From positions 76,425 through 108,424 of the forward strand of contig NZ_AULM01000011.1 in NCBI RefSeq assembly GCF_000422285.1: a stretch of 32,000 nucleotides of DNA. The letters are read 5' to 3'. Positions 6,772-25,472 of this stretch are shown piece by piece. The position numbers were made by a program, and so were the translations under genes. This stretch comes from Desulfatiglans anilini DSM 4660. Lineage in GTDB: Bacteria > Desulfobacterota > DSM-4660 > Desulfatiglandales > Desulfatiglandaceae. The first letter of the stretch is position 1. Each line of letters opens with the position of its first letter. Below the pieces are notes generated by a model, which did not search any database, was not told where the DNA came from, and saw only the letters and a program-made list of their open reading frames with translations.

Positions 6772-6784
6772 GTTGCCTACTCCT

Positions 6785-6973
6785 TTACCCTTGCTCCCGG
6801 GGGTCGTTCAGGTCACAGACATTGATCTCGAGCATCTTCAGCGATGCCAGCATGCGGGCGGTGTTGCGTTTGACGGCAGGAAAGGTGTCCGCCATCCCAT
6901 GGAGGCCTTCGGCTGTTTTTCGCATGCTGGAGATCATCTCGGCCATTTTTTTGAATTGCGCTTCATCCACCAT
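6785..6973 (-). CDS. Hypothetical small protein (62 aa), predicted helical
   Basis: The ORF fits exactly between the PaaK-like stop (6995) and the nitroreductase start (6771). A strong SD, GAAGGAG, lies 10 nt upstream. I recognise no family. Confidence 0.55.
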   Translation of the reverse strand: MVDEAQFKKMAEMISSMRKTAEGLHGMADTFPAVKRNTARMLASLKMLEINVCDLNDPREQG

Positions 6974-6994
6974 CGCCGATCTTCTCCTTCTTTG

Positions 6995-8326
6995 TCAATG
7001 ATCCTTTCGCAGGTCCTTGAACCGTTTGGCCTTGACCTCGTAGCGGGGCAGTTGGCCGTAATCGTTGAATTCAAGGTCGTAGCGCAGGTTCGTCTTCAGG
7101 CGTAACTGATCGACCAGAGCGGCCTCGACGGCCTTCCGGTTCCCGCGGGCCTCCGGGAGCAATTCGACCTTGAGGGAGATCCGGTCCGAATCTCCGACCT
7201 TGTCGACGATGACCTCGTATTCGTCCCCGAGCCCCTCGATGCTCCGCACCACCTCCTCGATGGCGGAGGGGGCGAGCAGCACGCCTTTGACCTTGGTGAT
7301 GTCATCGGCGCGGCCGACCACCCCGCCCTTGATGAGGCGGAAGGTCCGGCCGCAGCGGCAGGGCTCCGAATCCCATTCGATCACATCTTTGGAATCGAAA
7401 CGGACGCAGGGCTGTGCCTGGCGGTCGAAGGCGGTGATGACCATCTTGCCCCGCCGGCCGGGTTCCTCGATGATCTCCCCCGTCTCGATGTCTTCGATCT
7501 CCACCAGGAACATCCCCTCGTTGACGTGCATCCCGAAGGGCTGCTCCGCGCACTCGAAGGACCAGGCCCCGATCTCTGTCGCGCCGGCGTGATCGAACAC
7601 CTTGGCGCCCCAGGCATCCTGCATGCGTTTCTTGGTGGAAGGGATTCCGGCGCCGGGTTCTCCGGCGCAGGTGATCCTGCGGATCGACAACGCGGCGGGG
7701 TCGATTCCCATCTTGCGCGCGGTGTCCGCCATCCCGAGCACATAGGTCGGCGTGGCCATCATGGCCGTGGCCCTCAGTTCCTGCATCTTGAGGATGCGCG
7801 CTTTGGTGTCGAGAACCCCGCCAGGAACGACCTCGCAGCCGATCTTTTCGGCGGCGTAATGCCCTGCCCAGAAGGCGACGAAGATATTGTACCCGAAGGG
7901 CAGGAAGACCCGGTCCGACGGGCGGTATCCCTGGGCCCAGAGGATGCAGGCCCAGCACTCGGCCCACCATTCCCAGTCCTGCCACGTATCCGGCTGGTAC
8001 ACCGGCTGACCGGTCGTGCCGCTCGTCTGGCGGAACTCGGTCACCTCCTCCAGCGGCACGCAGAGGGCATCCCCGTAAGGGAACGGATCTTTCCGCTGGA
8101 TGTCGCGCATCATGGATTTTTCCACCTTCGGCACGGCACGGATGTCCTCGAACGTGCGGATATCCTCAGGGCGGACACCCGCCTGATCGTAGAGCGCGCG
8201 GTGAAACCGTGAATGGTCATAGGTCCAGGCAAAGATCCGCTTGAACTTTTTCAGTTGAAGCGCCCTGAGTTTTTGCCTTGGCAGGGTCTCGATCACTGGA
8301 TTCCAATAGATTGGATGGTCGACCAT
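6995..8326 (-). CDS. Phenylacetate-CoA ligase (PaaK) / coenzyme F390 synthetase-like adenylate-forming enzyme
   Basis: 443 aa. The PaaK-type N-terminus is ...ETLPRQKLRALQLKKFKRI... and the AMP motif is RQTSGTTGQPV. The length and C-terminal domain resemble PaaK. SD GAGAGG is present. Confidence 0.87.
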   Translation of the reverse strand: MVDHPIYWNPVIETLPRQKLRALQLKKFKRIFAWTYDHSRFHRALYDQAGVRPEDIRTFEDIRAVPKVEKSMMRDIQRKDPFPYGDALCVPLEEVTEFRQTSGTTGQPVYQPDTWQDWEWWAECWACILWAQGYRPSDRVFLPFGYNIFVAFWAGHYAAEKIGCEVVPGGVLDTKARILKMQELRATAMMATPTYVLGMADTARKMGIDPAALSIRRITCAGEPGAGIPSTKKRMQDAWGAKVFDHAGATEIGAWSFECAEQPFGMHVNEGMFLVEIEDIETGEIIEEPGRRGKMVITAFDRQAQPCVRFDSKDVIEWDSEPCRCGRTFRLIKGGVVGRADDITKVKGVLLAPSAIEEVVRSIEGLGDEYEVIVDKVGDSDRISLKVELLPEARGNRKAVEAALVDQLRLKTNLRYDLEFNDYGQLPRYEVKAKRFKDLRKDH

Positions 8327-8441: not shown

Positions 8442-8544
8442 TAGCATGACGGCGGTGGCCAGAGCAAGTATGGGAATCCCCTCGATGAAACCGGCCACCG
8501 GTCTTTCAGGAAGCGGAGGGACGTGAATAAGTCCCGACCGCCTC

Positions 8545-9072
8545 TCAGTCCTGCTTTTTCTGGGCCCTTGACCTGCTTTGGATGGCGGTCCGGAGCGTAT
8601 CCAAAAACTCCCTGTCGGCCATTTCCCATGCCGCTCCGAACCGCATCTGGAAATACGATCGGGGAAGCCTTTTCTGCCATGCGACCAGGGGGCTCTCGCC
8701 CTTGGCACGAGCGATGAGGATGTCGTTCAGAAAATCCTCGATCCGCGATATCTCTTCCTTCGGAACATAAGCCGCCGCCCCTTCCTTGACGGATTTGATG
8801 ACGTTGTCCGGCGTAAAGGCATGGGCCGTCAACATGAGGGCCGGTATGTCGTGCTGATTGGCGATCTCGAGTAGGTCATACCCCCTGACGCCCATGATAT
8901 CCAGGACGGCTACATCGAAACGACGCGATTCGAGCAGTTTTTTGGCTTCCTCGAACGTAGAGGCCGTAACGACCTGGCACATGCTCAAGTGTTCTGTCAG
9001 CACATCGAGGATATCCTGCTCGTCATCCACCACCAGGATTCTTTTCCCCTTCAACAGACTGCTTTCGGTCAT
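8545..9072 (-). CDS. Single-domain (REC) response regulator with about 50-aa C-terminal extension and no recognisable output domain
   Basis: 175 aa with KRILVVDDEQDILDVL and the phospho-acceptor context FDVAVLDIMG. The SD AAGGAG overlaps the stop of the upstream PpsB-like gene. Confidence 0.85.
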   Translation of the reverse strand: MTESSLLKGKRILVVDDEQDILDVLTEHLSMCQVVTASTFEEAKKLLESRRFDVAVLDIMGVRGYDLLEIANQHDIPALMLTAHAFTPDNVIKSVKEGAAAYVPKEEISRIEDFLNDILIARAKGESPLVAWQKRLPRSYFQMRFGAAWEMADREFLDTLRTAIQSRSRAQKKQD

Positions 9073-9084
9073 TGTAAATTCTCC

Positions 9085-10161
9085 TTAGTCCAGCTTCAGC
9101 TTGATGGGCGTGGTCGCTTTTTCGAACAACAATTCAAAACCGGTTTTTTTGCCCAGAACGGATTCCTTCTTCTTTTTACCCCAGGCGCTTTCAGGACGGG
9201 CCTGTACGAGATAGATCGATTCAGGGAACGGCAGGCTTCCGGAGACGGCAAACTCGATATCCTGCGGGACGCCGAAGTGGGCCTCCACCTTCTTGGCGAG
9301 GCGCGCCAGTTCGATGATCTCCCGGTCTTCCAGGCAGGGGAGCTTCTTTTGGTCGGCAGGCAATTCCTTGTATTCCATTTTGCGGGTCTCGGGGTTGTAG
9401 GCGAATTCGCTCCCCTTATCGGAAATGACCCTTTCGTCGATTTCCAGGGTGATCTTGTCGACCAGATAGCGGTCCGGGTTGACGTTGCCCGAGACCACGG
9501 CCTCGCCGAAGCCGAAACCGGCCTCCATGGACACCTTCGACTCGTCGCCATTGATGGGGTTGAGCGAGAACATGACGCCGGCCGCCTTTGCGTCGACCAT
9601 CGTGAGAACCGCCACCCCGATCGGATCGTATTCGAGTTTGAGGCCCAAGCGTGCGCGGGCGATAATGGAACGGGTGTTGAACGTGCTCGCCCAGACGCTC
9701 CGGACGTATTTGACAACATCATCCGCGCCGCTCACGTTCAGGTAGGTTTCATACTGTCCCGGATGGCTGACGGGACCCGCCGAGCGTGTCGCGACAAACA
9801 GATCTTCCTTGCCGGTCTGCCGGCAGAGTTCGGCATAGTATTCGCGGATGGTCTTTTCCATGTCGGGCGGCAAGGCAATCGATTCAACCGTGCTGCGGAC
9901 CTCTTTGGAAAGGATGTCGAATTTTTCCGTGTCGGCCACACTTTCAGCGTCGGCCTTGAAATGTGAAAGGATTTTCAACACACGTTCGGTGGCTTCAGTC
10001 TCTTTCATGAACCGGTCGTAGGCGACAACGCTCAGCGCGAATCCAGGCGGGACGTGGAACCCGGCCTGTGTCAGTTCCCCGAGATTCGCACACTTCTTCC
10101 CCACAATATCGTTATGGTCTTTTGACAGTTCGCTCAGCCAGTAAATCCATTGGTCCGGCAT
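9085..10161 (-). CDS. PEP-synthase N-terminal (ATP-grasp, PPDK_N) protein, phenylphosphate synthase PpsB-like
   Basis: It has the VGKKCANLGEL nucleotide-binding motif and matches the PEP synthase N-terminal domain along its length. The track ORF extends to 10170, but GAGGAGG directly abuts that ATG. The ATG at 10161 has 9-nt spacing, so I prefer it; either start is possible. Confidence 0.85.
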   Translation of the reverse strand: MPDQWIYWLSELSKDHNDIVGKKCANLGELTQAGFHVPPGFALSVVAYDRFMKETEATERVLKILSHFKADAESVADTEKFDILSKEVRSTVESIALPPDMEKTIREYYAELCRQTGKEDLFVATRSAGPVSHPGQYETYLNVSGADDVVKYVRSVWASTFNTRSIIARARLGLKLEYDPIGVAVLTMVDAKAAGVMFSLNPINGDESKVSMEAGFGFGEAVVSGNVNPDRYLVDKITLEIDERVISDKGSEFAYNPETRKMEYKELPADQKKLPCLEDREIIELARLAKKVEAHFGVPQDIEFAVSGSLPFPESIYLVQARPESAWGKKKKESVLGKKTGFELLFEKATTPIKLKLD

Positions 10162-10259
10162 CTTCTTCATCCTCCTCTATGTTGCTGCCATGCAGCGCCT
10201 TCGCGCAAGGGGCGCCGGGGTATCCTTTCCTCGCCCCCGGCGCGAAGGGGTAAAAAATA

Positions 10260-12107
10260 TTAAACCCGTTTGACGATGGTCACTTTGCCGGTGCTTCCAT
10301 CCACGCGGATGATGTCCCCGGTCTTGATGACCTGAGTTGCGACCCCGGTTCCCGTTACGGAGGGCAGGCCGTATTCCCGCGACACGATGGCCGCGTGGGA
10401 TGTGAGACCACCGATATCCGTCACAGCCGCCTTGATCTTGGTAAAAACGGGCGCCCACGAGGGATTGGTCGTCGGCGCGACCATAATCTCTCCGGGCTCC
10501 AGCTTGGCAACGTCGGCCAGCATTTTGAGCACGCGGGCGGGTCCTTCGGCCACGCCGGCGGACGAGGGGAACCCGGTGATTTCATCCAGATCTCCGACTT
10601 CCATACCCGCACCCTTCAGCCATTCCTGCACCAGGTCGGTCGTGACGCCCCAGAGCATGAGGGTGAACGGTTCCGCGATCTGTTCGGGCGGCACCCCGAT
10701 GGCGGGCGTGGGATTCCACTTCGCTGCAGCTTCAAGGATCTTCTTCCGCTTTTCGGCCTTTGCCTGCCAGAAGGGGCCCCTGGTGGGTACGCCCTCGCCC
10801 AGGGCCCAGGCAGTGGCCAGATCCTCCAGGAGCATGGGGACCTCGAACCGGTTGAAGAGGTAAATGTCCTCAGGTTCGCCCAGGACGCCGTGCTTGGTGA
10901 GGATCTTCCCGAACTGATCGATCCGCTCGAACCAGATCGTGTGCAGCCAGTGTTCGACCCAGAAAAGGTGATCCTCTGCATAGCGGTAAATGGAGCGGAC
11001 GACCCTGTGCGCATCCTCGAAGGTCTTGCGGTCGTCTTCGGAGCGGATGAGGGCCTTGTATTCGGCGACAATCCGCTCTCTTTCCTCGGAAATGCTCTCG
11101 AGTTTCCGCTCGATCGTCTCGCCTTTCTCGAGGCGTTCGACGTAGCTCTGCATGTAACTGAAAGGGAGGTCCATCGTGTTGATCCAACTGCCTTCGTAGT
11201 GGAACCAGCCGCTGCCGTTCGAGACGTAGAACCACGGGTTCTTGATCTTGTCCATCTCCTCGATCCAGGCCTTTCCTTCGGGCGTGGTCCTGAGGATGTT
11301 CATCTTCTCTTCGGCGGTGCCCTTCTGCTTCAAGACCTCGGCGACGGAGCGGTGGCTCATGGCCAGCCGGCTCAAGCGGCAGAGTTCTTCCTCGGGCCGG
11401 AACATGGAGACGTCCGCCCCGGCGACCATCTTGCCGATCGTGCCTTCCTTGATCCCCGGGAAGAGCTTCCGGGAGGTGTCCACGAACATCAGGTAGGCCA
11501 GGTAGGCCAGGTTGAGATACTGGAAGTGATACTGCCAGGCCCGGATGATGAGATTGACGATGTCGTTGAAGTTTTCCATGAGGACGTTGGCTTCGGTAAA
11601 CCCCTTGGGGGTGGGAATGACGTCCTCATCGGGCACGAACTCATATAGCTCTTTCGGGATGTGTATGGCCTCCATGTCGTGGCCGAGCTTGTGGAATTTC
11701 ACGAGCCATTCTTCCCACTGCCGGGCGTAGTTATCGAAGGTATAAGGGACCCGCTTCCCGAAGAGTTCGGCCTTCTTCTGGATGACGTCCCCCGGGGGCG
11801 ATTCGACGGCGCTGATGTACATATAGCACCCCAGGATCCGTTGGGCGACGCCCTGGGCCGGGGGGATGCAGAAGACCCTGGTGTTGTACTGGGACAGAGC
11901 GATCTGCCAGGCTTCCTGGAAGATGTCGTCCAGCGGGTAGAGCGGATCGGCGGCGTGGATCTTGTCGTGGTACCAGAAATGCCGCTTTTCCCAGGCCTCC
12001 CGGTCCTTGCTGAAAAGACGCTGGGGCGCGTACATTTCTTCCCATCCCTCCATCTCGGGTGGCAATTCGATTTCATCTGCAAATGGAAATTGGATCGGTG
12101 CTGCCAT
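10260..12107 (-). CDS. PEP-utilising enzyme with mobile phosphohistidine domain, phenylphosphate synthase PpsA-like
   Basis: The C-terminal motif GGLTSHAAIVSREYGLPSVTG is the swivelling phospho-His domain. The track ORF extends to 12254 and overlaps the upstream gene. The ATG at 12107 is preceded by AGGGGGGAA and begins MAAPIQFPF, giving 615 aa. Confidence 0.85.
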   Translation of the reverse strand: MAAPIQFPFADEIELPPEMEGWEEMYAPQRLFSKDREAWEKRHFWYHDKIHAADPLYPLDDIFQEAWQIALSQYNTRVFCIPPAQGVAQRILGCYMYISAVESPPGDVIQKKAELFGKRVPYTFDNYARQWEEWLVKFHKLGHDMEAIHIPKELYEFVPDEDVIPTPKGFTEANVLMENFNDIVNLIIRAWQYHFQYLNLAYLAYLMFVDTSRKLFPGIKEGTIGKMVAGADVSMFRPEEELCRLSRLAMSHRSVAEVLKQKGTAEEKMNILRTTPEGKAWIEEMDKIKNPWFYVSNGSGWFHYEGSWINTMDLPFSYMQSYVERLEKGETIERKLESISEERERIVAEYKALIRSEDDRKTFEDAHRVVRSIYRYAEDHLFWVEHWLHTIWFERIDQFGKILTKHGVLGEPEDIYLFNRFEVPMLLEDLATAWALGEGVPTRGPFWQAKAEKRKKILEAAAKWNPTPAIGVPPEQIAEPFTLMLWGVTTDLVQEWLKGAGMEVGDLDEITGFPSSAGVAEGPARVLKMLADVAKLEPGEIMVAPTTNPSWAPVFTKIKAAVTDIGGLTSHAAIVSREYGLPSVTGTGVATQVIKTGDIIRVDGSTGKVTIVKRV

Positions 12108-12192
12108 GATGTTCCCCCCTCTTTTTGGTTGAATGCCCGGTGTTCCCTCGACCCGCCGCCCGCGTTTTCCGCGGGAGCGGGTCAGCCCCTGA

Positions 12193-14544
12193 TTACTTCC
12201 CCTTGGCCTTCTGAATGGCCATGAAGACCCTTTCCGGCGTGAGCGGAAGCTCATCGATCCGAACGCCGATCGCGTCGTGTACCGCGTTCAGGATGGCCGG
12301 GATCGTGGGCATGATGGCCCCTTCCCCAACCTCCTTGGCCCCGAACGGACCGTTCGGCTCTCCGGTTTCCACCACGATGGTGTTGACGTTGGGCATGTCC
12401 AGGGCCGTGGCGATCTTGTACTCGCCAAGGTTGCCGTTGAGCACCCGCCCCTTGGCGTCGATCTTCACCTCTTCATAGAGGGCCTCACCGAGCCCCATGG
12501 AGAGCGATCCCTGCATCTGTCCCTCGACGGAGGTCACGTTGATCGCCAGACCGCAGTCGTGGGCGTCCGTCATCTGGTCTACCTTGACGCGTCCGGTTTC
12601 GAGGTCGACCGTCACCTCCACAACCTGGGCGGAGCAGCCATAGGCCGGCGAGGTCCCGACGGCCGCCCCTTTGAATTTGCCGCCCAGTGCCGGCGGCTTG
12701 TACTTCCCGGTTCCGACGATGCTGCCTCTGGCGAGGTAGGCCATGCGGGCGGCCTCCCTGAAGGTGAGTTTGTCTCCGGTGGGCGGATCGGTCCAGCCCC
12801 GATGCTCTTTGATGTAAGCCGTGCGCAGGCCGCTGAAATCCACGTCTTTTTTAAAGTGGATCAGGCCGTCTTTGATGTCCATCTCGTCCATCGGGACGCC
12901 GAGGATCTCGGAGACGACCTCCAATACCTGTCGTTTGACGTCCTCGGCCGCCTCTTTGGCCGCGTGCCCGCTCATCAAGGTCTGGCGGCTCGAATAGGCG
13001 CCGAGATCCACGCCGTAGTCCGTGCTGCCCGAGGAGACCTTGATGTCCTCCAGCCTCACCCCCAGGGCCTCGGCCGCGATCATGCCCATCGTCGTATCGG
13101 AGCCCTGCCCGATTTCGGCGGAGGCCGTCAGGAGATCGGCTGTGCCGCCGTCTTCCCGCAGCTTCAGAACGGCTGTCGAATGGTAGGTGTCCGAACGGTA
13201 GATCGGATACCCGGCGCCCGAAACGAAGAATCCGCAGGCGATCCCGATTCCCTTGCCGGGGGGGAGCTTGCCCTTCTTGGCGTTCCAGTCCGAGCCGTTC
13301 TTCACGGCCTCGATGCATTCCTTCATGCCGAGGCTGCTCATGTTCAGGTCGTTGCAGGTGGTGTCTCCGCGCTCCATCATGTTTTTCAGGCGGAAATCGA
13401 CCGGATCGATGCCCAGTTCCTGGGCGATGGCATCCAGTTGCTGCTCCCAGGCCGCCCGCGCCGCCACGCCGCCGTGCCCGCGCTGGGCCCCGCAGGTGGG
13501 CTTGTTCGTGTAGATCCGATAGCCGTCGTACTTCATGTTGGGCAGCCTGTAGGGGCCGCCGAGGAGGGATCCGGCGTAGTAGACCGTGGCGATCCCGAAA
13601 CTCGTGTAAGCGCCCCCTTCCAGGTAGCACTTGTTGGTCAGCGCCATCAGGGTCCCGTCCTTTTTGACTCCGGTGGTCAATTCGTGGAAGAACTGGTGCC
13701 GCGCGCGGGAGTGTAGAAAGACCTGTTCCCGGGAATAGTTCATCTTGACCGGCTTGCCCGTCTTCATGGACATGAGGGAGGCCGCCATCTCGAGCGGGAT
13801 GGCCTCGGCCTTGGGCCCGAAGCCGCCGCCCACGTAGGGTTTGATCACGCGCACCTTTCCGATGGGGAGACGGAGCACCATGGCCGCGGTGCGCTGCACG
13901 TAATGCGGTGTCTGGGTGGAGGTGTTAAGGGTGAGCTCTCCCGTCAAGGGATCGAAGGCCGCCAGACAGCCGTGCGGCTCGAGGAAGGCGGCGTCCTGAC
14001 GCTTGTTGACGAAGGTGTCCGTGCGGATGAGGTCACACTGCTTGAAGGCCTCTTCGACGTTCCCGAACTCCTGGTGTACCTCGGCGCAGATGTTGCCCGG
14101 ATAGTCCGAGTGGATCAGCGGGGCCCCTTCGGCCATGGCGTCTTCGATCGTCATGAGGGGCGAAAGTTCCTCGTAATCCACCTGGATCAGCGAGACGGCC
14201 TCCATCGCCGTTTCAAGATCGACGGCGGCCACTGCCGCGATCTCGTCGCCGATGTAACGCACCTTGTCGTGGCAGAAGAGGGTTTCATCGTAGCGGGCAG
14301 GGCTCACGCCGTACTTGACGAGGCCGGCTTCGGCGGCCGTAACGACGCACTTGACCCCCGGAAGCTTCAAGGCCTTGGAGGTGTCGATGTTCAGGATCTT
14401 GGCGTGGGCGATCGGGCTTTGAAGCAGGGCACCGTAAAGCATGCCCGGCATCTTCAGATCGTCGACATATTGCGCGCGTCCCGTGGCCTTGGCCGGTGCG
14501 TCCAGCCTTGGCGCCCTGCGGTTGATGACGCTGTGTTGGCTCAT
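12193..14544 (-). CDS. Xanthine dehydrogenase family molybdopterin-binding large subunit (4-hydroxybenzoyl-CoA reductase HcrA-like)
   Basis: 783 aa. The N-terminus APRLDAPAKATGRAQYVDDLKMPGMLYG is typical of the aldehyde oxidase/XDH a/b-hammerhead plus MoCo domains. SD GAGAGGAG is present. Confidence 0.9.
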   Translation of the reverse strand: MSQHSVINRRAPRLDAPAKATGRAQYVDDLKMPGMLYGALLQSPIAHAKILNIDTSKALKLPGVKCVVTAAEAGLVKYGVSPARYDETLFCHDKVRYIGDEIAAVAAVDLETAMEAVSLIQVDYEELSPLMTIEDAMAEGAPLIHSDYPGNICAEVHQEFGNVEEAFKQCDLIRTDTFVNKRQDAAFLEPHGCLAAFDPLTGELTLNTSTQTPHYVQRTAAMVLRLPIGKVRVIKPYVGGGFGPKAEAIPLEMAASLMSMKTGKPVKMNYSREQVFLHSRARHQFFHELTTGVKKDGTLMALTNKCYLEGGAYTSFGIATVYYAGSLLGGPYRLPNMKYDGYRIYTNKPTCGAQRGHGGVAARAAWEQQLDAIAQELGIDPVDFRLKNMMERGDTTCNDLNMSSLGMKECIEAVKNGSDWNAKKGKLPPGKGIGIACGFFVSGAGYPIYRSDTYHSTAVLKLREDGGTADLLTASAEIGQGSDTTMGMIAAEALGVRLEDIKVSSGSTDYGVDLGAYSSRQTLMSGHAAKEAAEDVKRQVLEVVSEILGVPMDEMDIKDGLIHFKKDVDFSGLRTAYIKEHRGWTDPPTGDKLTFREAARMAYLARGSIVGTGKYKPPALGGKFKGAAVGTSPAYGCSAQVVEVTVDLETGRVKVDQMTDAHDCGLAINVTSVEGQMQGSLSMGLGEALYEEVKIDAKGRVLNGNLGEYKIATALDMPNVNTIVVETGEPNGPFGAKEVGEGAIMPTIPAILNAVHDAIGVRIDELPLTPERVFMAIQKAKGK

Positions 14545-14696
14545 GGTCTTTCACTCCTCTCGATAGCTTGGATCGGGTTTTGATGTCTGCGTTGTTTTCA
14601 GGTCTCAGGCTCGGTTGGTCCAGGGAATCAGCAGACCGGAGGCCTCTTTGCAGGGGCGCCGGCCGGAGCGGACCCGGAAATGTTCACCCGGCCTGA

Positions 14697-15161
14697 TCAA
14701 CGGGCGCGGCCGACGTCGAGGATGGCCTCGACGATCTTCTGATAGCCTGTGCAGCGACAAAGGTTTCCGGAAAGCGCGCGTCTGACCTCAGCCTCGTTGG
14801 GATGCGGATTTTTTTCGAGCAGGCTCTTGGCCGAAAGGATCATCCCTGGCGTGCAGAAGCCGCACTGGATCGAACCGTGGTCGATGAAAGCCTGCTGCAA
14901 CGGGTGCAGACCTTTGCCCGTTTCCACGCCTTCGATGGTGGTGATGCTTTTCCCGTCGGCCTGCACGGCCAGGACGAGGCAGGAGTTGACGGCTTTTCCA
15001 TCCATGATGACCGTACAGGCCCCGCAGTCCCCCAGATCACAGCCTTTTTTGGTGCCGGTCAGGCCCAGTTCGTATCGCAGAAGGTCCGTGAGGGTGAGGT
15101 TTGGTGCCACGGCCACTTCCATTTCTTCACCGTTGATGGTCAGTCGGATCAATTTTTTCAT
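14697..15161 (-). CDS. XDH-family [2Fe-2S] small subunit
   Basis: 154 aa with a plant-type cluster motif CDLGDCGACTV and a second cluster motif CGFCTPG...CRCTGY. Confidence 0.92.
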   Translation of the reverse strand: MKKLIRLTINGEEMEVAVAPNLTLTDLLRYELGLTGTKKGCDLGDCGACTVIMDGKAVNSCLVLAVQADGKSITTIEGVETGKGLHPLQQAFIDHGSIQCGFCTPGMILSAKSLLEKNPHPNEAEVRRALSGNLCRCTGYQKIVEAILDVGRAR

Positions 15162-15175
15162 CGTCTCATTCTCCT

Positions 15176-16063
15176 CTAGCTTCTGGCCCGGGCGTCCTTG
15201 AGGGCCGCATCGAGGGCGCGTTTCGTCAGGACCCCCACCATGGCCCGCCGGTATGCGGCGGATCCGCGGAAGTCGTCGATCGGGCGGCTGTCGCCCGAGG
15301 CTGCATTCGCTGCTTTCTCGAACAGTGCGTCGGAGGGCTTTTCGCCGATCAGCGCATTTTCGGCCGACGGCGCCCGGATGGGCGTGGGGGCGACCGAACC
15401 GAGGACCACCCGTGCGGCCTTGATCGGTCCGTCCGGACCATCGAGAGCGATGAAGGCCGCCACGTTGACGAGGGAGATCTCGAGCGCCTCACGAACCCCG
15501 AGCTTCTGGTACCCGGCTCCCGAGTTCGGGAGCGGTGCCGGCAGGAGAAAAGCGGTCAGAAGTTCATCCTGGGCCAGGATCGTGGCGCCCGGGCCGGTAA
15601 AGAGCGATTCCACCGGGACGGTGCGCTCGCCGCCTGTTTTCTGGAGCACGGCCTCTGCACCATAGGCGATAAGGGACGGGGGAAGGTCGGCCGCCGGACG
15701 GGCCGAAACCACATTGCCGGCGATGGTCGCGAGGTTTCTGACCAGCGGGGAACCGAGCCAGCCCGCGCCGGAGGCGAGGGCGGCAAAGGTCTTCTTCACC
15801 AGCGCGTTTTCGGCCAGATCCGCCACGTTTTCACGGGCGCCGATGCGCACCTGCCCATTTTTCTTGTCCACCCCTTTCAGGTCTGCGATTTTTCCGACGG
15901 AGATCACATTCGCCGTGGTGAAGACCTTTTTTTTGAGGTTGACCAAAAGGTCCGTTCCGCCTGCCAGAACTTTTCCGTCCCCTTTGAACTGTGACAGCAG
16001 TTCGCAGACATTCGCCACGCTCCCGGGCTCATGGTAATCGAATCTAGGTAAAAGCATCTTCAT
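15176..16063 (-). CDS. XDH-family FAD-binding medium subunit (CoxM/HcrB-like)
   Basis: 295 aa with the VLAGGTDLLVNLK FAD motif. The whole protein has only one Cys. An alternative start at 16057 has better SD spacing. Confidence 0.88.
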   Translation of the reverse strand: MKMLLPRFDYHEPGSVANVCELLSQFKGDGKVLAGGTDLLVNLKKKVFTTANVISVGKIADLKGVDKKNGQVRIGARENVADLAENALVKKTFAALASGAGWLGSPLVRNLATIAGNVVSARPAADLPPSLIAYGAEAVLQKTGGERTVPVESLFTGPGATILAQDELLTAFLLPAPLPNSGAGYQKLGVREALEISLVNVAAFIALDGPDGPIKAARVVLGSVAPTPIRAPSAENALIGEKPSDALFEKAANAASGDSRPIDDFRGSAAYRRAMVGVLTKRALDAALKDARARS

Positions 16064-16099
16064 CTCTCCTTTGTTGTCCCTGGGCTCAAACCCGTGCGC

Positions 16100-16681
16100 C
16101 TATCGGGGCTTCGCGGACGTTTCCTCGCCCCAGCGCTGGAACAGGTTGTGCTCGATTCCGAGGTAATCAAAGATTTTTCCAATGGTCTGATCGAGGATGT
16201 CCTCGATGGTTTTGGGTTGGTGGTAGAACGACGGCACGGGAGGCAGAAGATGGGCGCCCATGTCGGCGGCGGTCATCATGAGCCTGAGGTGCCCCTTATG
16301 TAAAGGTGTTTCGCGGACGACCAGCACCAGTTTGCGCTTCTCCTTCAGCGTGACGTCGGCGGCGCGGACGAGAAGATTTTCGGTGTAGGAATTGGCGATT
16401 CCCGAGAGGCTCTTGATCGTGCAGGGTGCGACGACCATTCCCGAGGTGAGGAAGGATCCGCTGGCGAGGGCCGCACCGACGTCGCGGTGATCATAGCAGT
16501 ATGCGGCCATGGCTTCAATATCCTTTGCGGTATACCTGGTTTCGATCTCGATATTTTTTTTGCCTGATGGCGAGATGATGAGGTGGGTTTCGACATCGGT
16601 TTTACTGAGGTGTTCCATTAGACGTACGCCATAGATGACGCCGCTGGCGCCCGAAATGGCTACGACGATTCGTTGATTCAT
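16100..16681 (-). CDS. ubiX: Flavin prenyltransferase UbiX (prFMN synthase)
   Basis: 193 aa with RIVVAISGASGVIYGVRLMEHL and a length and C-terminus typical of UbiX/Pad1. Confidence 0.92.
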   Translation of the reverse strand: MNQRIVVAISGASGVIYGVRLMEHLSKTDVETHLIISPSGKKNIEIETRYTAKDIEAMAAYCYDHRDVGAALASGSFLTSGMVVAPCTIKSLSGIANSYTENLLVRAADVTLKEKRKLVLVVRETPLHKGHLRLMMTAADMGAHLLPPVPSFYHQPKTIEDILDQTIGKIFDYLGIEHNLFQRWGEETSAKPR

Positions 16682-16901
16682 GGCAACCCCTTGCTATTCC
16701 CCCTGCATGGCCGAGGGTAGGTGTTTCAAACGGGAGAAATTCCGCAGGCCATGCTATACGCCCCGGCCCGCCGGTGGCAGGGAACTCCGGCTGCCGGGGA
16801 TATGGTGTAGCATGGGCGGAACATCTCTGCTTGGTTCTTTTTCGATCAGGGTGTTTCTCCTCCCTGATGCCTTGTGCATTGAAATCGCTGCAAGCCCCCT
16901 A

Positions 16902-18113
16902 TTAAAAAATTTGGAGGGATGCTTTGACGACCGCCGCTGCAAAGGCTGGATCCTCCATGTTGGCGTCCACTTCGAGGATTTCGATGTCAGGTTTGAGGCC
17001 TTTGCGCAACTCCCCCGCAAAGACGAGGTCCTCTTCGGGGTTGTGGGTGGCATTTCCCGGATAATCGACGGAAGACCATCCTTTGAGGGGGATGAGGACC
17101 TTTACGGGACCTTTGGAGCGGTTGAGTTTTTCCCGGAACGACCCTGCCACTTCGCGCAGTTCGTCGGCCGAGAGGCGGATCCAGGTTCGGAACCGGTCGA
17201 GATCGTATTTCGGCCGCTGCGCATAATCCGGCTTGTACTTGGATTTGGCCGGCGTCATGTGATTGACGCTGCAGGTCGAGATGATCTGCGGTAGCCCGGC
17301 CTCACCGGCGGACTCGAGACGCCTCGGCCCCGCGTCCCGCATGAAGCCGAACAGGTGTTCGCCGACGCCGCCGGGTGCCAGATCGACGACCCCGCTAAAC
17401 AGTCCGTCGGCGATCATGTCTTCCATCGCACGGTCGCAGACCCCGGCCGCAGAAAACCCGATGACCTGGTATCCCTCCTGGGTCAAAGCTTCGCGGACGG
17501 AACTGGCGCATTTCTCACAAGGCCCGAGCATGGTGAGGGCGATGGCCTTGCCTGCAGTGGAGCGGGGGGAGATGATGTCATCCTGCACCTGGCCCGCCAT
17601 GGCGGCCGCCGCCCGATCCAGGACGTTTTTCAAGAGGTCCGAGAGCCCCGATATCTCGATGACCGAGTGAAAAAGGGCGATGTCTCCTGTACCGATGTAC
17701 CGGGTGGAAAGGCCCGGCAGGGCGGCGGTGGAGGAGATCATCAGCTTGGGTACGCCGAAGGGCAGCGCCCGCATGACATCCGTCGCCATTAGGGACCCGG
17801 TGGAGCCCCCGAGCCCGACGACGCCGCTGAGTTGGCCTTCCTTCTGCAGATCCTGGGCGATCCTTGCGCCACCCCGGATCATGGTGTTGGTGATTTTAGA
17901 GCGTTCACGGGATTCGCGAACCTCCTGCAGGCTGCTCCCGCCGGCCTCGGCCACGCGGCCGGGGCCGATGTCGGCGGGGGAAGCCTCGTCGCCGCGCATC
18001 GAGATATCCATCAAGAGGGGCTCGAGGCCCCTGGCCTCGAGCCGTTCCTTCAGATACAGGGTCTCCTGCCCTTTAGTATCCAGGGTGGATATCACCAGGA
18101 CTTTCTTGCCCAT
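16902..18113 (-). CDS. UPF0261 / Tm-1-like ATP-binding domain protein, paralogue 1
   Basis: 403 aa with KKVLVISTLDTKGQETLYLKERLE, GLGGSTGS and PKLMISS. It resembles the N-terminal ATP-binding domain family of Tm-1 (UPF0261). The start lies 3 nt after the ligase stop. Confidence 0.8.
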   Translation of the reverse strand: MGKKVLVISTLDTKGQETLYLKERLEARGLEPLLMDISMRGDEASPADIGPGRVAEAGGSSLQEVRESRERSKITNTMIRGGARIAQDLQKEGQLSGVVGLGGSTGSLMATDVMRALPFGVPKLMISSTAALPGLSTRYIGTGDIALFHSVIEISGLSDLLKNVLDRAAAAMAGQVQDDIISPRSTAGKAIALTMLGPCEKCASSVREALTQEGYQVIGFSAAGVCDRAMEDMIADGLFSGVVDLAPGGVGEHLFGFMRDAGPRRLESAGEAGLPQIISTCSVNHMTPAKSKYKPDYAQRPKYDLDRFRTWIRLSADELREVAGSFREKLNRSKGPVKVLIPLKGWSSVDYPGNATHNPEEDLVFAGELRKGLKPDIEILEVDANMEDPAFAAAVVKASLQIF

Positions 18114-18116
18114 GAT

Positions 18117-19775
18117 CTAAATCTCCCCTGCTGCGATCCGCTTTTCGATATCGACCTTCAGCTCCTTTTTGTTGATCTTGCCGGAGTCGCCGACCGTGGG
18201 GAACGCGTCCATGAGGACCATCTTTTCCGGCAATTTGAACATCGCCAGTTTCTTCGACTTCAGGAAGTCGACCATCTCCTGGAAGGTCAGGGTCTGACCG
18301 GCCTTGGGGATGACGCAGACGCAGCACCTTTCCCCCATCTCGCGGTCGGGGTAGCCCACGATAGCGACTGAGGCCACCTTCGGATGTTCGTTGAGCAGTC
18401 CCTCGACCTCGGCGGGGTAGATGTTCTGGCCGCCGCGGATGATCATGTCTTTGGCGCGTCCGAGGATCCAGAGGCAGCCCTGGTCGAACTTGACGATGTC
18501 GCCAGTGGTGGTCCAGCCGTTTTCGTCGAAAACCGTAGCCGTGAGCTTCTCGTCGCGGTAATAGCCCGCCGGGGCGTGGGGGCCGCGGAACCAGAGCACG
18601 CCGGGTTCGCCTTCCGGGACCTCTTTCTTCGCCTCTTCATCCATCAGGCGCACTTCGTTGCCGGGCAGCATGCGGCCGACCGTACGGCGGCGGAGCTCCT
18701 TCGAGTCTTCCACGCGGCAGCCCGAGACCGAACCCATATCCTGGGTCCCCAGGTCGCTCGTAATGGCAGCCCCAAAGGCATTCTCGGCCTCCTCGGCCAC
18801 CTGCGGCGAGAGGTAGCCGCCGGCCGAGCGGATGAAGCGAAGGGAACTCAGGTCATATTTCTTGGTATCGACCTCGAGCATTCGCACGAGGTGGGTCGGC
18901 ACTACGCCGATGGCCGTCGCCTTCTCTTTCTCGATCAGGGCCAGGGCGTCTTCCGGAGAAAACTCCTCGAGCATGACGGTCTTCGCGCCGGCGAGCGGGG
19001 CCGCGAAATAGGTCAGGGTTCCGGCCGCGCCGCCGGCGTGGGGCGCGATGGCCATGGTGATGTCGTCCTTGTTCAGCCCCCAGATGTCGACGCGGGCCTT
19101 CGAGGTGCAGACCCTGGGCGCGATGGGCCATTCGACCAGTTTGGGAAGTCCGGTGGTGCCGGTGGTGCTGGTGAGGAGCCCTACGTTCCAGATGGGATCC
19201 AGGCGTCTTTCTTTAAAAACGGCTTCATCGCCCGGTTTCGGGCTGCGGCCTTCGGCCAGTTTGGTAATGGAGTAGGTGCCTGCCGGGGCGTCGGCGGGGA
19301 CCGTGTCATCGAAGAGGAAAAAATTCTTGAGATAGGGGAAGCGCGCCTGAAGGCCCTTGTACATCGCGAGATAGTCGAACTTGCGATAGACCGTCGGGAT
19401 GACGACGGCAGCGGCCTCGGTCCGTTCGACCATGTACTCCAATTCCTTCTCCCTCAGGTAGGGATAGACGGTCAGGGAGATCAGGCCGGCCCTCTCGCTC
19501 GCAACGCGAGCCAGAAATCCGTAAACGCTGTTGGGGGACTGGATGATGATGCGGGAGAACTTGGGGATGCCCATCTCCACCCACGACATCGCGATCGAGT
19601 CGACCAGCTTTTTGGCCTCGGCCCAGGTGACGCGATACTTCGAGTCCACCAGCGCTTCACGATCACCCAGTTCACGGGCGTTGCGATCATAAAAATCATA
19701 AAAGGTCTCCTGCGTCCAGTAGCCCTTCTTCAGGAATTCATCGACCATCTTCTGCTGATAACGGATCGGTTTCAT
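18117..19775 (-). CDS. AMP-forming aryl/acyl-CoA ligase (ANL superfamily)
   Basis: The AMP-binding motif is LLTSTTGTTGLPKLV. The EntE/aryl-acid-ligase-like N-terminus reads FLKKGYWTQETFYDFY. The track ORF extends to 20108 and overlaps the ubiD-like gene. The ATG at 19775, after GAGAGGGAAG, gives 552 aa. Confidence 0.88.
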   Translation of the reverse strand: MKPIRYQQKMVDEFLKKGYWTQETFYDFYDRNARELGDREALVDSKYRVTWAEAKKLVDSIAMSWVEMGIPKFSRIIIQSPNSVYGFLARVASERAGLISLTVYPYLREKELEYMVERTEAAAVVIPTVYRKFDYLAMYKGLQARFPYLKNFFLFDDTVPADAPAGTYSITKLAEGRSPKPGDEAVFKERRLDPIWNVGLLTSTTGTTGLPKLVEWPIAPRVCTSKARVDIWGLNKDDITMAIAPHAGGAAGTLTYFAAPLAGAKTVMLEEFSPEDALALIEKEKATAIGVVPTHLVRMLEVDTKKYDLSSLRFIRSAGGYLSPQVAEEAENAFGAAITSDLGTQDMGSVSGCRVEDSKELRRRTVGRMLPGNEVRLMDEEAKKEVPEGEPGVLWFRGPHAPAGYYRDEKLTATVFDENGWTTTGDIVKFDQGCLWILGRAKDMIIRGGQNIYPAEVEGLLNEHPKVASVAIVGYPDREMGERCCVCVIPKAGQTLTFQEMVDFLKSKKLAMFKLPEKMVLMDAFPTVGDSGKINKKELKVDIEKRIAAGEI

Positions 19776-19887
19776 CTTTGCTTCCCTCTCGAAATGGATG
19801 AATGTTCGTCTGCCTTGATGGGGCTGTTTTTTTCCGGCTGCCGGTTGAAGACCGGCCTTGAACGGACCCGGACCTGAAACGGTTTTC

Positions 19888-19922
19888 GGCGCACCCCCGG
19901 CCTGAGCGGCCGGGAGTGCGCC
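19888..19922 (-). other. 15-bp GC-rich stem-loop between the UbiD-like and ligase genes
   Basis: GGCGCACCCCCGGCC tgagc GGCCGGGAGTGCGCC. The single mismatch becomes a G-U pair in the minus-strand transcript. No U-tract follows, so it is more likely a processing, stability or attenuation element than a terminator. Confidence 0.4.
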
Positions 19923-19950
19923 TCCCGGGGGAGGGTTTCCGGTTAGAGGG

Positions 19951-21357
19951 TTAGAAACCCAGTTCAGACCAGCGAGCTTCGACCCTCTTGACCATTTCGG
20001 GGTCGAGCTTGATCGGGATGGGCTTCTCTTTCCAGTCGTAGGGGATGGTGGCGTCCAGCAGGAGGCGGCCCGTGATATCCCTGGCGTCGATGGGCAGCGA
20101 GGGATCAAGCGGAGTCGAGCGGCCGCGCTTGATGACCTGGCAGCGGTTCGGCTGGAAGCGGAAGCTCAGGGCGTACAGGACCCGTGGAATGTCCCAGGGC
20201 TCGATGTCTTCGTCGACCACGATCACGGTCTTGAGGCCGTAGGCGCCCATTTCCGTCGAGATGGCTGCGGTGAGCACCTGGTCGGCGTGGCCAGGGTACA
20301 TCTGCTTCATGGAGATGATGGCGAGGAAGCGGCCCGAGCCTTCCGGCGGGCAGTACACCGAACGGATGCCGGGGATCTTCATGCCGACGAGCTGCTGCCA
20401 CAGGGTCGCGCCGTAGGAAACGGCCATGGTCATGTGGGTGTCGGTGACCGCGCGGCCGACCGTGGTGCCCCAGAGGATCGGGTTGTTGCGGTAGGTCACG
20501 CACTTGACATCGATGAAGTTCCTGGGATCGGTTCCGACGCCGGAATAGTAGCCGGTGTATTCACCGAACGGGCCTTCCTGCATGAAGGCCTCGGGATCGA
20601 CCTCTCCTTCGACGACGATTTCAGCGTGCGCCGGGATCGGGAGATCCACAGTTTCACCCTGGACCACCTCGACCGGTTCGTTGCGAATGGCACCGGCGAC
20701 ATCGTACTCCGACACGAAAGCGGATATCCGGGCGGCGCCAAGGATGAAGAGCAGGGGGTCACAGCCGATGATCGAGGCGACCGGCATCTTTTTGCCCATG
20801 GCCTGGTATTTCTTGAGCATGATGTCGGCGTGCTTGCCTTTGATGAACTGGGTGCCCATTTTATCCTTCCCGAGGAGTTGGGAGCGGTAGGTGCCAAGGT
20901 TCACCCAGCCGGTCTCGGGGTCCTTCGAGATGATGAAGTGGGCGGTGCCGAGATAGCGGCCGCCGTCGAGGGGGTACCATTGGGGCGTCGGGAATTTGTA
21001 GAGGTCGACTTCGTCGCCCATCATGATATTCTCTTTGCAGGGCGCGGCAGACTTGTCCACTACCTTCGGGGGGATCAGCTTGTCGCCGATTTTAACCCAT
21101 TCTTCCATAATTTGCGTTAGGGAAGATGACGGGTCCATCCCCATGATGAGGGAGAGTCGCTCTGTGGTCGTGCAGACGCTCGTAATGACGGGTGTGGTGT
21201 AATCCTTCACGTTCTCGAACAGCAGCGCCGGACCTTGCTGTTCTTCGTTGAGCTTGGCGATGTGCGACAGCTCCAGGTTCCAATCGACCTCCGCCTTGAT
21301 CCGCTTCAGCGCGTTGTGCTCTTCGGCCACCTTGACAAAATCTCTCATGCTTTTCAT
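19951..21357 (-). CDS. UbiD-family prFMN-dependent (de)carboxylase
   Basis: 468 aa with MRDFVKVAEEHNALKRIKAEVDWNLELSHIAKL...GPALLFENVKDY, and UbiD-like similarity along its length. SD AAGGAG lies 8 nt upstream. Confidence 0.9.
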   Translation of the reverse strand: MKSMRDFVKVAEEHNALKRIKAEVDWNLELSHIAKLNEEQQGPALLFENVKDYTTPVITSVCTTTERLSLIMGMDPSSSLTQIMEEWVKIGDKLIPPKVVDKSAAPCKENIMMGDEVDLYKFPTPQWYPLDGGRYLGTAHFIISKDPETGWVNLGTYRSQLLGKDKMGTQFIKGKHADIMLKKYQAMGKKMPVASIIGCDPLLFILGAARISAFVSEYDVAGAIRNEPVEVVQGETVDLPIPAHAEIVVEGEVDPEAFMQEGPFGEYTGYYSGVGTDPRNFIDVKCVTYRNNPILWGTTVGRAVTDTHMTMAVSYGATLWQQLVGMKIPGIRSVYCPPEGSGRFLAIISMKQMYPGHADQVLTAAISTEMGAYGLKTVIVVDEDIEPWDIPRVLYALSFRFQPNRCQVIKRGRSTPLDPSLPIDARDITGRLLLDATIPYDWKEKPIPIKLDPEMVKRVEARWSELGF

Positions 21358-21937
21358 TCTAAATTCTCCTTCATTAGGTTAAAATTAGTAAAAAGGGACA
21401 ATATGGTTACGCTATTGCTACGCAATGCTGAACGTAATTTTCAACCAGGAAATATAAGGGATTGGTGTCTCCCCTGACGTGATGCGCCGAAAACGAACGG
21501 GTTCAGTTCAGGGGGAGAATGAATGTCTGCGTATCCGACTGTAATACCCGCGAACGTCGATCGAACCGCCCTGTCAGGTGCGGATTGTCTCTGCCGCTTC
21601 AAAGCCGGCGGCACTGCCGGCCGCACCGGCGATGCGGCCGCTTTCCTTCGGGCCCGGCCCACACGGTGGTAAGGGAAGCACCCTTCTCGTTAGATTTTCT
21701 AACCGTGAGCCTTGAGAAAACCGTCGGTGTCATATATCGCGCCGTATCGGGAATGGTTCAAATTCAATTAGAAATTGGAGGAATGTTGTACGCATCTGTC
21801 TTGAATCTCTATGTCTGCTACATCCGTTCCGGGAGTGTATCACTGGAAACGCGCCCGTAGATCGAATGATTTCGTGCTATCGTTACCCCTTTAATCGCCT
21901 TTTCAAAGAAAACTGTCAAATGCATTTTTTTTATGGT

Positions 21938-21960
21938 ATTCATAAACGTTGTTTATGAAT
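21938..21960. promoter_or_regulatory. Perfect 10-bp inverted repeat ATTCATAAAC-gtt-GTTTATGAAT, candidate LysR-type operator
   Basis: The dyad lies in the divergent region between the LysR gene and the ubiD-led operon. It contains T-N11-A-compatible symmetry. A partial third half-site, ATTCATGCAT, follows at 21964. Confidence 0.45.
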
Positions 21961-22166
21961 GCGATTCATGCATAACCAGCTCTTAGGGATCGGATCACCG
22001 TGATGCGGCGGAAGAGAGGCTGCGCCCATGTTTCCTGTTTTCCCCTTGGAGGGGCCAGGATCCCTTCTGATGGGGCTGTGCGTGAATGGGGTCCTTTCGC
22101 TTGAAGTGGCGGGGCAGCAGCCTCGTTTCGGGAATTGAGGCGCAGGATGCCAGGAGGTCGGTTTCT

Positions 22167-25456: not shown

Positions 25457-25472
25457 TGGCACGCAGGTTGCT
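25457..25472 (+). promoter_or_regulatory. Sigma54 (RpoN) -24/-12 promoter
   Basis: TGGCAC gcagg TTGCT matches the TGGCAC-N5-TTGCW consensus exactly. It lies about 55 nt upstream of the ATG at 25527. An AT-rich tract (25400-25440) lies upstream, where a bending site would be expected. Confidence 0.72.

Follow-up and report, generated by a model that had tools for sequence, protein, structure and literature searches.

The closest described systems to the gene array treated here are the phenol operon of Thauera aromatica (PpsABC/PpcABCD), the pps-ppcB cluster of Geobacter metallireducens, the ani cluster for aniline of Desulfatiglans anilini, and the HpeHI/AcvAB and MarK system for acetovanillone. 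The array lies on a stretch of 32,000 nucleotides (nt) from D. anilini DSM 4660 (contig NZ_AULM01000011.1, positions 76,425 to 108,424), below called the window. It is very probably the phenol catabolic “phe” cluster of this strain, H567DRAFT_02047/02049-02059 (locus tags are shortened to their last five digits from here on), leading from phenol to benzoyl-coenzyme A (CoA), a reading to which we give a probability of about 0.9.

With the Thauera operon the array shares the division of domains between PpsA and PpsB, a UbiD core of the PpcB type, a UbiX-like gene (ORF8 in Thauera) and a homolog of the PaaK-like ORF14. In contrast, PpsC, PpcA, PpcG and PpcD are missing, and a ligase of 550 amino acids (aa), a UPF0261 protein, a receiver-domain (REC) protein and genes resembling those of 4-hydroxybenzoyl-CoA reductase (Hcr) are added. 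The cluster of G. metallireducens (Schleinitz et al. 2009), as far as it is cited in the 2018 description of the phe cluster (PMC6114531), is likewise that of a strict anaerobe; it has a ppc-beta homolog alone and lacks a gamma subunit. The ani cluster resembles the array in its split synthase, UbiD-type subunit, acyl-CoA synthetase of ~550 aa, UPF0261 protein and xanthine dehydrogenase (XDH)-family reductase, and makes use of the same UbiD protein, 02059. It differs in gene order, in its induction by aniline and 4-aminobenzoate, and in its regulator, a 718-aa response regulator. In the acetovanillone system, too, an aryl hydroxyl group is phosphorylated before carboxylation, and a Pps-like dikinase occurs together with a UPF0261 kinase, but the carboxylase depends on biotin, and its target is the acetyl side chain instead of the ring.

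The phenol cluster itself is already known. Xie & Muller 2018 described it as a 14.4-kb cluster, 02049-02059, whose transcription depends on phenol, as seen by reverse transcription PCR (RT-PCR), and whose proteins, 38-49% identical to their Thauera counterparts, are far more abundant on phenol than on benzoate (PMC6114531). Extracts of phenol-grown cells formed phenylphosphate from phenol and ATP; extracts of benzoate-grown cells did not (PMC6114531). The same authors placed candidates for pps-gamma (03126), ppc-alpha (03563) and ppc-delta (00862) outside the cluster and found no ppc-gamma in the genome; 03126 was not phenol-induced and 00862 was undetected in the proteome (PMC6114531).

Several published landmarks tie the window to this locus. 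All six RT-PCR primers (for pps-alpha 02052, pps-beta 02051 and ppc-beta 02059) match the window without mismatch and as convergent pairs, with predicted products of 342, 363 and 447 bp, and the gene-specific parts of the two cloning primers 2059-F/R are the first 19 and the last 18 nt of the UbiD open reading frame (ORF). Over both sets, 157 of 157 primer nt are identical. The UbiD ORF is 1407 bp long and contains exactly two SalI sites, both as published, and 15 protein lengths from IMG, listed in the published supplementary table, equal those of ORFs in the window, including the flanking 02044 (YebC), 02046 (an aldehyde:ferredoxin oxidoreductase, AFOR) and 02061. Because the primers, the 1407-bp length, the SalI sites and the 15 protein lengths all agree, the window can be identified with the published phe cluster, or with that of a strain which no tested base sets apart from it. 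The route that the original prediction had laid out from the sequence, from phenol through phenylphosphate, 4-hydroxybenzoate and its CoA ester to benzoyl-CoA, is backed by the published experiments on this locus (PMC6114531, PMC7500099).

Induction by phenol is also evident from the published raw proteome areas, which we re-read for four growth substrates (values are those of replicate 1, in the order 4-aminobenzoate, aniline, benzoate and phenol). The areas were 1.5e9, 8.8e8, 8.8e8 and 1.8e10 for UbiD 02059, 8.5e8, 8.0e8, 6.6e8 and 1.26e10 for the 550-aa type ligase 02058, and 0, 5.0e7, 5.3e7 and 2.5e9 for UPF0261 02057, which is among the most phenol-specific products. The REC protein 02050 gave 1.06e9, 8.8e8, 6.9e8 and 6.0e9, and the PaaK-type ligase 02049 gave 0, 1.05e8, 8e7 and 5.8e8. 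The 2x[2Fe-2S] subunit 02054 reached 1.39e9 on phenol against 1.5e8 on benzoate, and UbiX 02056, the nitroreductase 02047 and the 62-aa protein 02048 were found in phenol-grown cells only (02047 and 02048 in replicate 1). The original prediction had named co-expression and induction by an aromatic substrate as the check beforehand, and the products are indeed co-induced by phenol: for those also detected on benzoate, the ratio of phenol to benzoate in replicate 1 is ~4- to 48-fold, and replicates 2 and 3 concur for 02050-02053 and 02055-02058. Since 02047 and 02048, which lie outside the published limits of the cluster, were detected on phenol only, the induced unit probably spans 02047-02059 and reaches position 6229. 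The second UPF0261 protein, 02061, was not induced (1.2e8 on phenol, 1.3e8 on benzoate) and is probably not part of the unit; AFOR 02046 was likewise not induced.

Gene identities rest on the ORF listing and on Pfam and NCBIfam scans of the window proteins (Table 1). The ten proteins named from the sequence alone are all encoded on the minus strand where they had been placed, and the scans back their identities. As a description of the unit, however, ten genes fell short. They are co-directional, yet the unit comprises 13 genes (6229-21357, minus strand), the downstream PaaK-type ligase, 62-aa ORF and nitroreductase having been missed. The gaps between the ten named genes measure 3-220 nt, and a Shine-Dalgarno-like motif is found at each start. 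The arrangement is, to judge from comparison with other genomes, not due to chance, because the array is fully syntenic in a sister species (93-99% amino-acid identity) and its modules recur in 80 species-level genomes. Operon boundaries could not be drawn, because between 5800 and 24800 both the sigma-70 promoter scan (7 against 4.6 in shuffles) and the terminator scan (19 against 20.8) stayed at shuffle level. An Rfam scan of the whole window returned no family at gathering score.

Table 1. Genes of the phe cluster and neighbouring features, in positions of the 32,000-nt window
Feature	Locus tag	Position	Strand	Basis or remark
UbiD-family carboxylase subunit, PpcB type (Ppc-beta2), 468 aa	H567DRAFT_02059	19951..21357	-	TIGR02724 506.8 bits
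AMP-forming aryl-CoA ligase, 552 aa, annotated 2,3-dihydroxybenzoate-AMP ligase	H567DRAFT_02058	18117..19775	-	AMP-binding + AMP-binding_C
UPF0261 (Tm-1/MarK family) two-domain ATP-binding protein, type A, 403 aa	H567DRAFT_02057	16902..18113	-	PF06792 + PF23189
UbiX flavin prenyltransferase (prenylated flavin mononucleotide synthase), 193 aa	H567DRAFT_02056	16100..16681	-	NF004685
XDH-family FAD subunit (HcrB-like), 293 aa	H567DRAFT_02055	15176..16057	-	PF00941 + PF03450
2x[2Fe-2S] subunit (HcrC-like), 154 aa	H567DRAFT_02054	14697..15161	-	PF01799 + PF00111
Molybdopterin subunit (HcrA-like), 783 aa	H567DRAFT_02053	12193..14544	-	1RM6_A match, TIGR03194
Phenylphosphate synthase alpha (PpsA), 615 aa	H567DRAFT_02052	10260..12107	-	PF00391, NF006153
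Phenylphosphate synthase beta (PpsB), 358 aa	H567DRAFT_02051	9085..10161	-	PF01326 PPDK_N only
Stand-alone receiver-domain (REC) protein, 175 aa	H567DRAFT_02050	8545..9072	-	PF00072
PaaK-type (phenylacetate-CoA ligase family) ligase, 443 aa	H567DRAFT_02049	6995..8326	-	PF14535 + weak PF00501
62-aa ORF, hypothetical protein	H567DRAFT_02048	6785..6973	-	ORF listing; called in sister genome too
Nitroreductase-family flavoprotein, 180 aa	H567DRAFT_02047	6229..6771	-	PF00881
LysR-type regulator, divergent		22086..23135	+	PF00126 + PF03466; true start probably near 22167
Second UPF0261 paralog, type B, 404 aa	H567DRAFT_02061	23192..24406	-	MarK-type His219 retained
AFOR, tungsten-enzyme family	02046	4015..5745	+	
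Two overlapping inverted repeats		21933..21976		LysR-UbiD intergenic region
Sigma-54 -24/-12 consensus, TGGCACGCAGGTTGCT		25457..25472	+	0 mismatches
ORF, glycine-cleavage-H domain		25527..26525		
ORF, glycine-cleavage-H domain		26800..27552		
Sigma-54-dependent response regulator		28204..29580	-	
PAS histidine kinase		30017..31567	-	

The first step of the pathway has a counterpart in the array. The only Pfam match of PpsA is the swivel domain of phosphoenolpyruvate (PEP) utilizers, PF00391, in its C-terminal part (residues 538-608), without PPDK_N or a TIM barrel. The protein carries the motif GGLTSHAAIV and scores 809 bits against NF006153, above the cut-off of 578. PpsB consists of PPDK_N (PF01326) only. 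Its gene follows ppsA after 89-98 nt, the distance varying with the start that is assumed; by its IMG length, the protein starts at the fourth codon of the ORF. Among database sequences, the nearest to PpsA is a protein of an uncultured Desulfatiglans (97% identity). Clustering of the pair with PEP synthases or rifampicin-type phosphotransferases, proposed beforehand as a sign against the pathway, is not a clean discriminator, because the solved structures nearest to the mobile domain of PpsA (the domain taken alone) are themselves chains deposited as phosphoenolpyruvate synthase. Orthologs of PpsA at 66-72% identity adjoin complete Thauera-type operons, with the diagnostic Phenyl_P_gamma, in other Thermodesulfobacteriota and in Syntrophorhabdaceae, which backs the Pps assignment independently of the papers. 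Induction and homology point to 02051/02052 as the likely phenylphosphate synthase genes, the activity being known at the level of extracts.

No gene for a Pps gamma protein (CBS/AcuB-like, ~24 kDa) is present in the window, and the position after ppsB, where Thauera has PpsC, is taken by the REC-only protein 02050, 12 nt downstream of ppsB. By eye, the acidic pair, the phospho-acceptor Asp, the Thr and the Lys usual for such domains are all there, along with a C-terminal tail of ~65 aa. In a minority of related loci, a homolog comes after PpsB or UbiD. Conceivably, the phospho-His of PpsA might serve as phosphoryl donor to 02050.

The carboxylase segment is reduced compared with Thauera, and here the original prediction of a non-canonical set, with one UbiD and no PpsC-like protein, proved right. 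UbiD 02059 has the motif EGPFGEYTGYY and reaches 506.8 bits against the phenylphosphate carboxylase beta model TIGR02724 (cut-off 468.95), but only 237 bits against the alpha model TIGR02723 (cut-off 564.6). It is the only UbiD homolog in the window, which thus holds no second, alpha subunit. PpcG (PF09662, Phenyl_P_gamma) gave no tblastn match in the window or in 33 related loci with long flanks described below, and no match to a delta subunit (HAD-type phosphatase) was found in the window. UbiX 02056, in turn, clears both of its models (NF004685, 261.6 against 188 bits; TIGR00421, 247.7 against 108.9 bits). To call the pathway complete, as had been done, went too far, as the second UbiD-like protein 03563 and the delta candidate 00862 are encoded elsewhere in the genome and the carboxylase activity could not be measured in extracts.

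The absence of alpha, gamma and delta carboxylase subunits from the cluster is one of several points that weigh against the phenol pathway reading. Phenylphosphate carboxylase activity was undetectable in D. anilini extracts (PMC6114531). In vitro, in assays on phenylphosphoamidate with 03872, 02059 was inactive alone, and the two proteins together carboxylated phenylphosphoamidate but not phenylphosphate (PMC7500099). On the side of the reductase, the Mo subunit scores 901.6 bits against TIGR03194, just below the HcrA equivalog cut-off of 994.55, and the FAD subunit has a single Cys and no counterpart of HcrB residues ~116-160. These residues form a ~40-residue Cys-rich loop that binds an extra [4Fe-4S] cluster in the Thauera enzyme.

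The best PDB match of the Mo subunit is the alpha subunit of T. aromatica 4-hydroxybenzoyl-CoA reductase (1RM6_A, E = 1.8e-176; the next match is at 2e-91), by far its closest solved relative, and the layout of three subunits with Mo, 2x[2Fe-2S] and FAD is that of Thauera HcrABC (PDB 1RM6/1SB3). The FAD subunit matches TIGR03195 in a split manner with 117.7 bits (cut-off 404.55) and, without the loop of Thauera HcrB, resembles CutM-type flavoproteins of CO dehydrogenase. The loop is missing as well from 32 of 32 homologs linked in other loci to the UbiD-ligase-UPF0261 triad described below, counting those aligned over at least 85% of their length. Because both the FAD subunit and these homologs are loop-less, electron input to the Hcr-like enzyme probably differs from the Thauera paradigm. 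A single divergent paralog (L060) has an insertion. We do not favour the 2018 idea that 02054/02055 are “CO dehydrogenase” subunits making CO for a carbonylation (PMC6114531), because they adjoin an HcrA-like Mo subunit and CO was no substrate in vitro.

Two ligases compete for the formation of 4-hydroxybenzoyl-CoA. The PaaK-type 02049, 39% identical to T. aromatica ORF14, was assigned as 4-hydroxybenzoate-CoA ligase, and 02058 was termed “function unknown” (PMC6114531). The latter has no NCBIfam equivalog above cut-off, but is ~20 times more abundant on phenol than 02049. This abundance, the way its linkage is conserved and the analogy to 03870, which aniline induces, make 02058 the likely main 4-hydroxybenzoate-CoA ligase, with 02049 in a minor or alternative role.

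The linkage became apparent when one genome per species was scanned with the in-cluster UPF0261 protein 02057. This gave 80 loci (57-74% identity) from Desulfobacterales, Desulfatiglandales, Syntrophobacteraceae, Syntrophorhabdus, Syntrophus, Desulfarculales and one metagenome-assembled genome of Acidobacteriota. In 68 of the 74 loci with room for it, the 550-aa ligase is the immediate upstream neighbour of UPF0261. The ligase is in turn preceded by a UbiD of 75-85% identity in 58 of 65 loci, which completes a UbiD-ligase-UPF0261 triad. UbiX is present in 47 of 52 loci, often with the LpdD chaperone for prenylated flavin mononucleotide (prFMN). The ligase stop codon overlaps the UPF0261 start (-8, -4 or -1) in ~25 of 69 loci, and none of the 69 shows a fusion of the two genes. 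Other components were counted in those 33 loci that extend at least 8 kb to either side, onto which the proteins of the window were mapped: PpsA was found in 28, PpsB in 29, LysR in 28 and Hcr-like genes in 14-16 of them, REC in 3, the PaaK-type ligase and a delta-type phosphatase in 1 each, and PpcG in none (0/33).

The Thauera-type operons near PpsA orthologs are built differently. They contain three UbiD, Phenyl_P_gamma, two HAD-type proteins, UbiX and a CTP-dependent riboflavin kinase (RFK), and those of the same phylum have neither ligase nor UPF0261 in the operon; the triad UbiD is only 52-53% identical to their PpcB-type UbiD. The order of the triad and the absence of PpcG indicate that there are two architectures, the Thauera type with alpha, beta, gamma and delta subunits, and a UbiD-ligase-UPF0261 type that includes the D. 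anilini cluster. Triad-linked PpsA homologs (L008-L087) fall into two classes of identity to the window protein, 62-81% and ~40-45%, which points to the joining of two lineages of synthase to one and the same carboxylase module.

The UPF0261 protein 02057 aligns over its full length with MarK of Novosphingobium (PDB 9MPY; E = 5.8e-56, 32% identity). MarK is the first UPF0261 member with a known activity: it uses ATP, yielding ADP, to phosphorylate phenolic hydroxyl groups. It can stand in for the Pps-like dikinases AcvAB/HpeHI of the acetovanillone pathway, and the two kinds of kinase occur together in many genomes (PMC12624787). An E16K change activated MarK (PMC12624787). In 02057, D12, T13 and K14 align to MarK D14, T15 and K16, so the lysine at the site of this change is native in type-A orthologs, and T and K are present in 81 of 81 of them. 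The substrate pocket is different. In MarK, Gly195 and His219 contact the phenolic oxygen, His348 the carbonyl, and His304 stacks (PMC12624787). Gly195 is kept in 02057, but Thr196, His219, Phe283, Ile285, His304 and His348 are replaced by Pro, Ser, His, Thr, Leu and Val. This signature is conserved in 67-79 of the 81 sequences, with Ser at the His219 position in 76. We rejected 02057 as a MarK ortholog because the MarK substrate pocket is not conserved; the alignment makes it a UPF0261 family member with a predicted intact nucleotide site and a distinct, conserved putative substrate site, here called type A. Other UPF0261 paralogs in the same loci, including the second copy of the window, retain His219. 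LysR-UPF0261 pairs like 02061 and its adjacent LysR flank phenol clusters in other genomes (L005, L070, L071).

From these parts the following pathway can be proposed, in which we infer the polypeptides of the carboxylase, the acting ligase, the dehydroxylation, and what UPF0261, REC, the nitroreductase and the 62-aa protein do. Phenol would be phosphorylated by PpsB (ATP-grasp) together with PpsA (swivel His and substrate domain), in a reaction that turns phenol and ATP into phenylphosphate, AMP and phosphate. A prFMN-dependent UbiD-type carboxylase built around the PpcB-type 02059, with its cofactor from UbiX, would then add CO2 para to the oxygen and give 4-hydroxybenzoate. An AMP-forming ligase, most likely 02058 with 02049 as a minor or alternative enzyme, would form 4-hydroxybenzoyl-CoA, from which the loop-less Hcr-like Mo/FeS/FAD enzyme would reductively remove the hydroxyl group to yield benzoyl-CoA. 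The divergent LysR probably controls the unit. For UPF0261, phosphoryl transfer on an aryl-O-P or aryl-N-P species seems most likely, with cofactor supply as a weaker alternative.

The sequence alone had left phenol, aniline or another arene as the substrate, with the aniline route said to fit equally well. Of these, phenol stands on the published experiments, and the aniline part did not hold up. Aniline is handled by the separate, aniline-induced ani cluster 03866-03876 (Xie et al. 2020), whose Pas-alpha is 26.7% identical to Pps-alpha of phe; from the phe cluster only 02059 (Ppc-beta2) is recruited, together with 03872 (PMC7500099). That the array could nevertheless be primarily an aniline/4-aminobenzoate pathway draws on just this need for 02059 with 03872 in the carboxylation of phenylphosphoamidate in vitro, and on the moderate levels of cluster proteins in aniline-grown cells. 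It is most improbable, as the ani cluster holds an aniline-induced synthase, ligase, UbiD and reductase of its own, the two synthase alpha subunits are as distant as stated, and on phenol the phe products exceed their levels on aniline 4- to 48-fold (replicate 1, where detected on both). With the published proteomics against it, aniline was rejected as the primary substrate. The true substrate might also be another phenolic, such as cresol, hydroquinone or catechol, with phenol as a gratuitous inducer. Pas-alpha/beta did show relaxed specificity (PMC7500099), and the triad UbiD is distant from the PpcB-type UbiD of Thauera-type operons, but phenol supports growth of D. anilini and is converted to phenylphosphate by extracts of cells grown on it, and UbiD 02059 lies above the PpcB equivalog cut-off, so that we consider this very unlikely.

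With phenol as the substrate, the question turns to the middle steps. These may be altered such that UbiD, the 550-aa ligase and UPF0261, along with UbiX, form a functional unit typical of strict anaerobes, in which UPF0261 carries out an ATP/ADP-linked phosphoryl transfer. It could act on phenylphosphate, replacing the missing delta phosphatase, or it could phosphorylate the para-OH or para-NH2 group of the acid or CoA ester and so prime the reductive elimination by the loop-less Hcr-like enzyme. We regard such a unit as quite possible, if somewhat short of an even chance. The nearly invariant order of the triad, the consistent absence of PpcG, the overlapping ligase and UPF0261 genes, the phenol-specific abundance of 02057, the ATP motif in 81 of 81 orthologs and the loop-less FAD subunits all speak for it, as does the ability of MarK to phosphorylate a phenolic hydroxyl group in place of a Pps-like dikinase. 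On the other hand, the His219 that binds the phenolic oxygen in MarK is mostly Ser and the rest of the pocket differs, and PpsAB is almost always present too (28-29 of 33 loci). Type-A UPF0261 might instead be a kinase in cofactor supply for UbiX/UbiD, making for example dimethylallyl phosphate or FMN, in a role like that of the CTP-dependent riboflavin kinase of Thauera-type operons, which end with UbiX and an RFK-family kinase. In many loci UPF0261 directly precedes UbiX, or LpdD and UbiX, as such a role would predict. However, it is coupled most tightly to the ligase and not to UbiX, two loci (L046, L052) carry both UPF0261 and RFK, and the ani cluster has a UPF0261 of its own while the ubiX-like gene sits in the phe cluster (PMC7500099), which together make cofactor supply unlikely.

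The UPF0261 protein of the ani cluster, 03869 (411 aa in the published supplementary table), is encoded between the genes for Pas-beta and for the acyl-CoA synthetase 03870, which aniline induces. Its areas are 5.4e9, 6.5e8, 0 and 0 on 4-aminobenzoate, aniline, benzoate and phenol. Protein 03869 is not discussed in PMC7500099, and neither D. anilini paper mentions UPF0261 02057 or REC 02050 (PMC6114531, PMC7500099). We found no searchable paper linking the UPF0261-ligase pair to anaerobic phenol degradation.

The conserved divergent linkage makes the LysR-type protein the probable, candidate regulator of the cluster. The region between LysR and UbiD contains two overlapping inverted repeats with ATTCAT/ATGAAT half-sites, arms of 15 and 13 nt and 3-nt spacers, in an AT-rich stretch. 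We do not claim this palindrome as a LysR operator, because it is not conserved in the related loci examined. A sigma-54 consensus was not found in the same intergenic region, and within the cluster only matches with 2 mismatches in coding sequence occur, at chance level. The only perfect sigma-54 consensus lies outside the cluster, 55 nt upstream of the first of two ORFs for unusual proteins, each with a glycine-cleavage-H domain and an N-terminal extension rich in Cys. Genes for a sigma-54-dependent response regulator and a PAS histidine kinase lie close by, and the whole gives the impression of a regulated unit of its own. At the other end, the AFOR gene 02046 neighbours the cluster in the opposite orientation; its product is plentiful in the proteome, although not phenol-specific.

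As the cluster is a rediscovery of a published locus, it brings no new biology alone. Beyond the papers, our results add 02047 and 02048 to the induced unit, prefer 02058 over 02049 as the main ligase, and draw attention to 02057 and 02050. The residual interest lies in the conserved, phenol-induced pair of UPF0261 and ligase. We tentatively propose, while leaning against it on balance, that strictly anaerobic phenol and aniline degraders use a second architecture, in which a PpcB-like UbiD, a 550-aa aryl-CoA ligase and a UPF0261 protein, performing ATP/ADP-linked phosphotransfer on aryl-phosphate or aryl-phosphoamidate, would replace the alpha, gamma and delta subunits. The pathway costs up to four ATP equivalents, and the authors of the 2018 study had no explanation of how a sulfate reducer meets this expense (PMC6114531). 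If true, the second architecture could explain both why phenylphosphate carboxylase activity has escaped measurement in D. anilini extracts and how anaerobes with little energy at their disposal can run the pathway.

Because of the synteny in 80 species, the raw proteome and the 2025 finding on MarK, UPF0261 and ligase 02058 are the obvious missing components for reconstitution of the carboxylase. Should they prove to be required, they would define the phenol/aniline carboxylation system of strict anaerobes, which would bear on what becomes of contaminants in anoxic sediments and digesters, and on biocatalytic carboxylation with UbiD enzymes.

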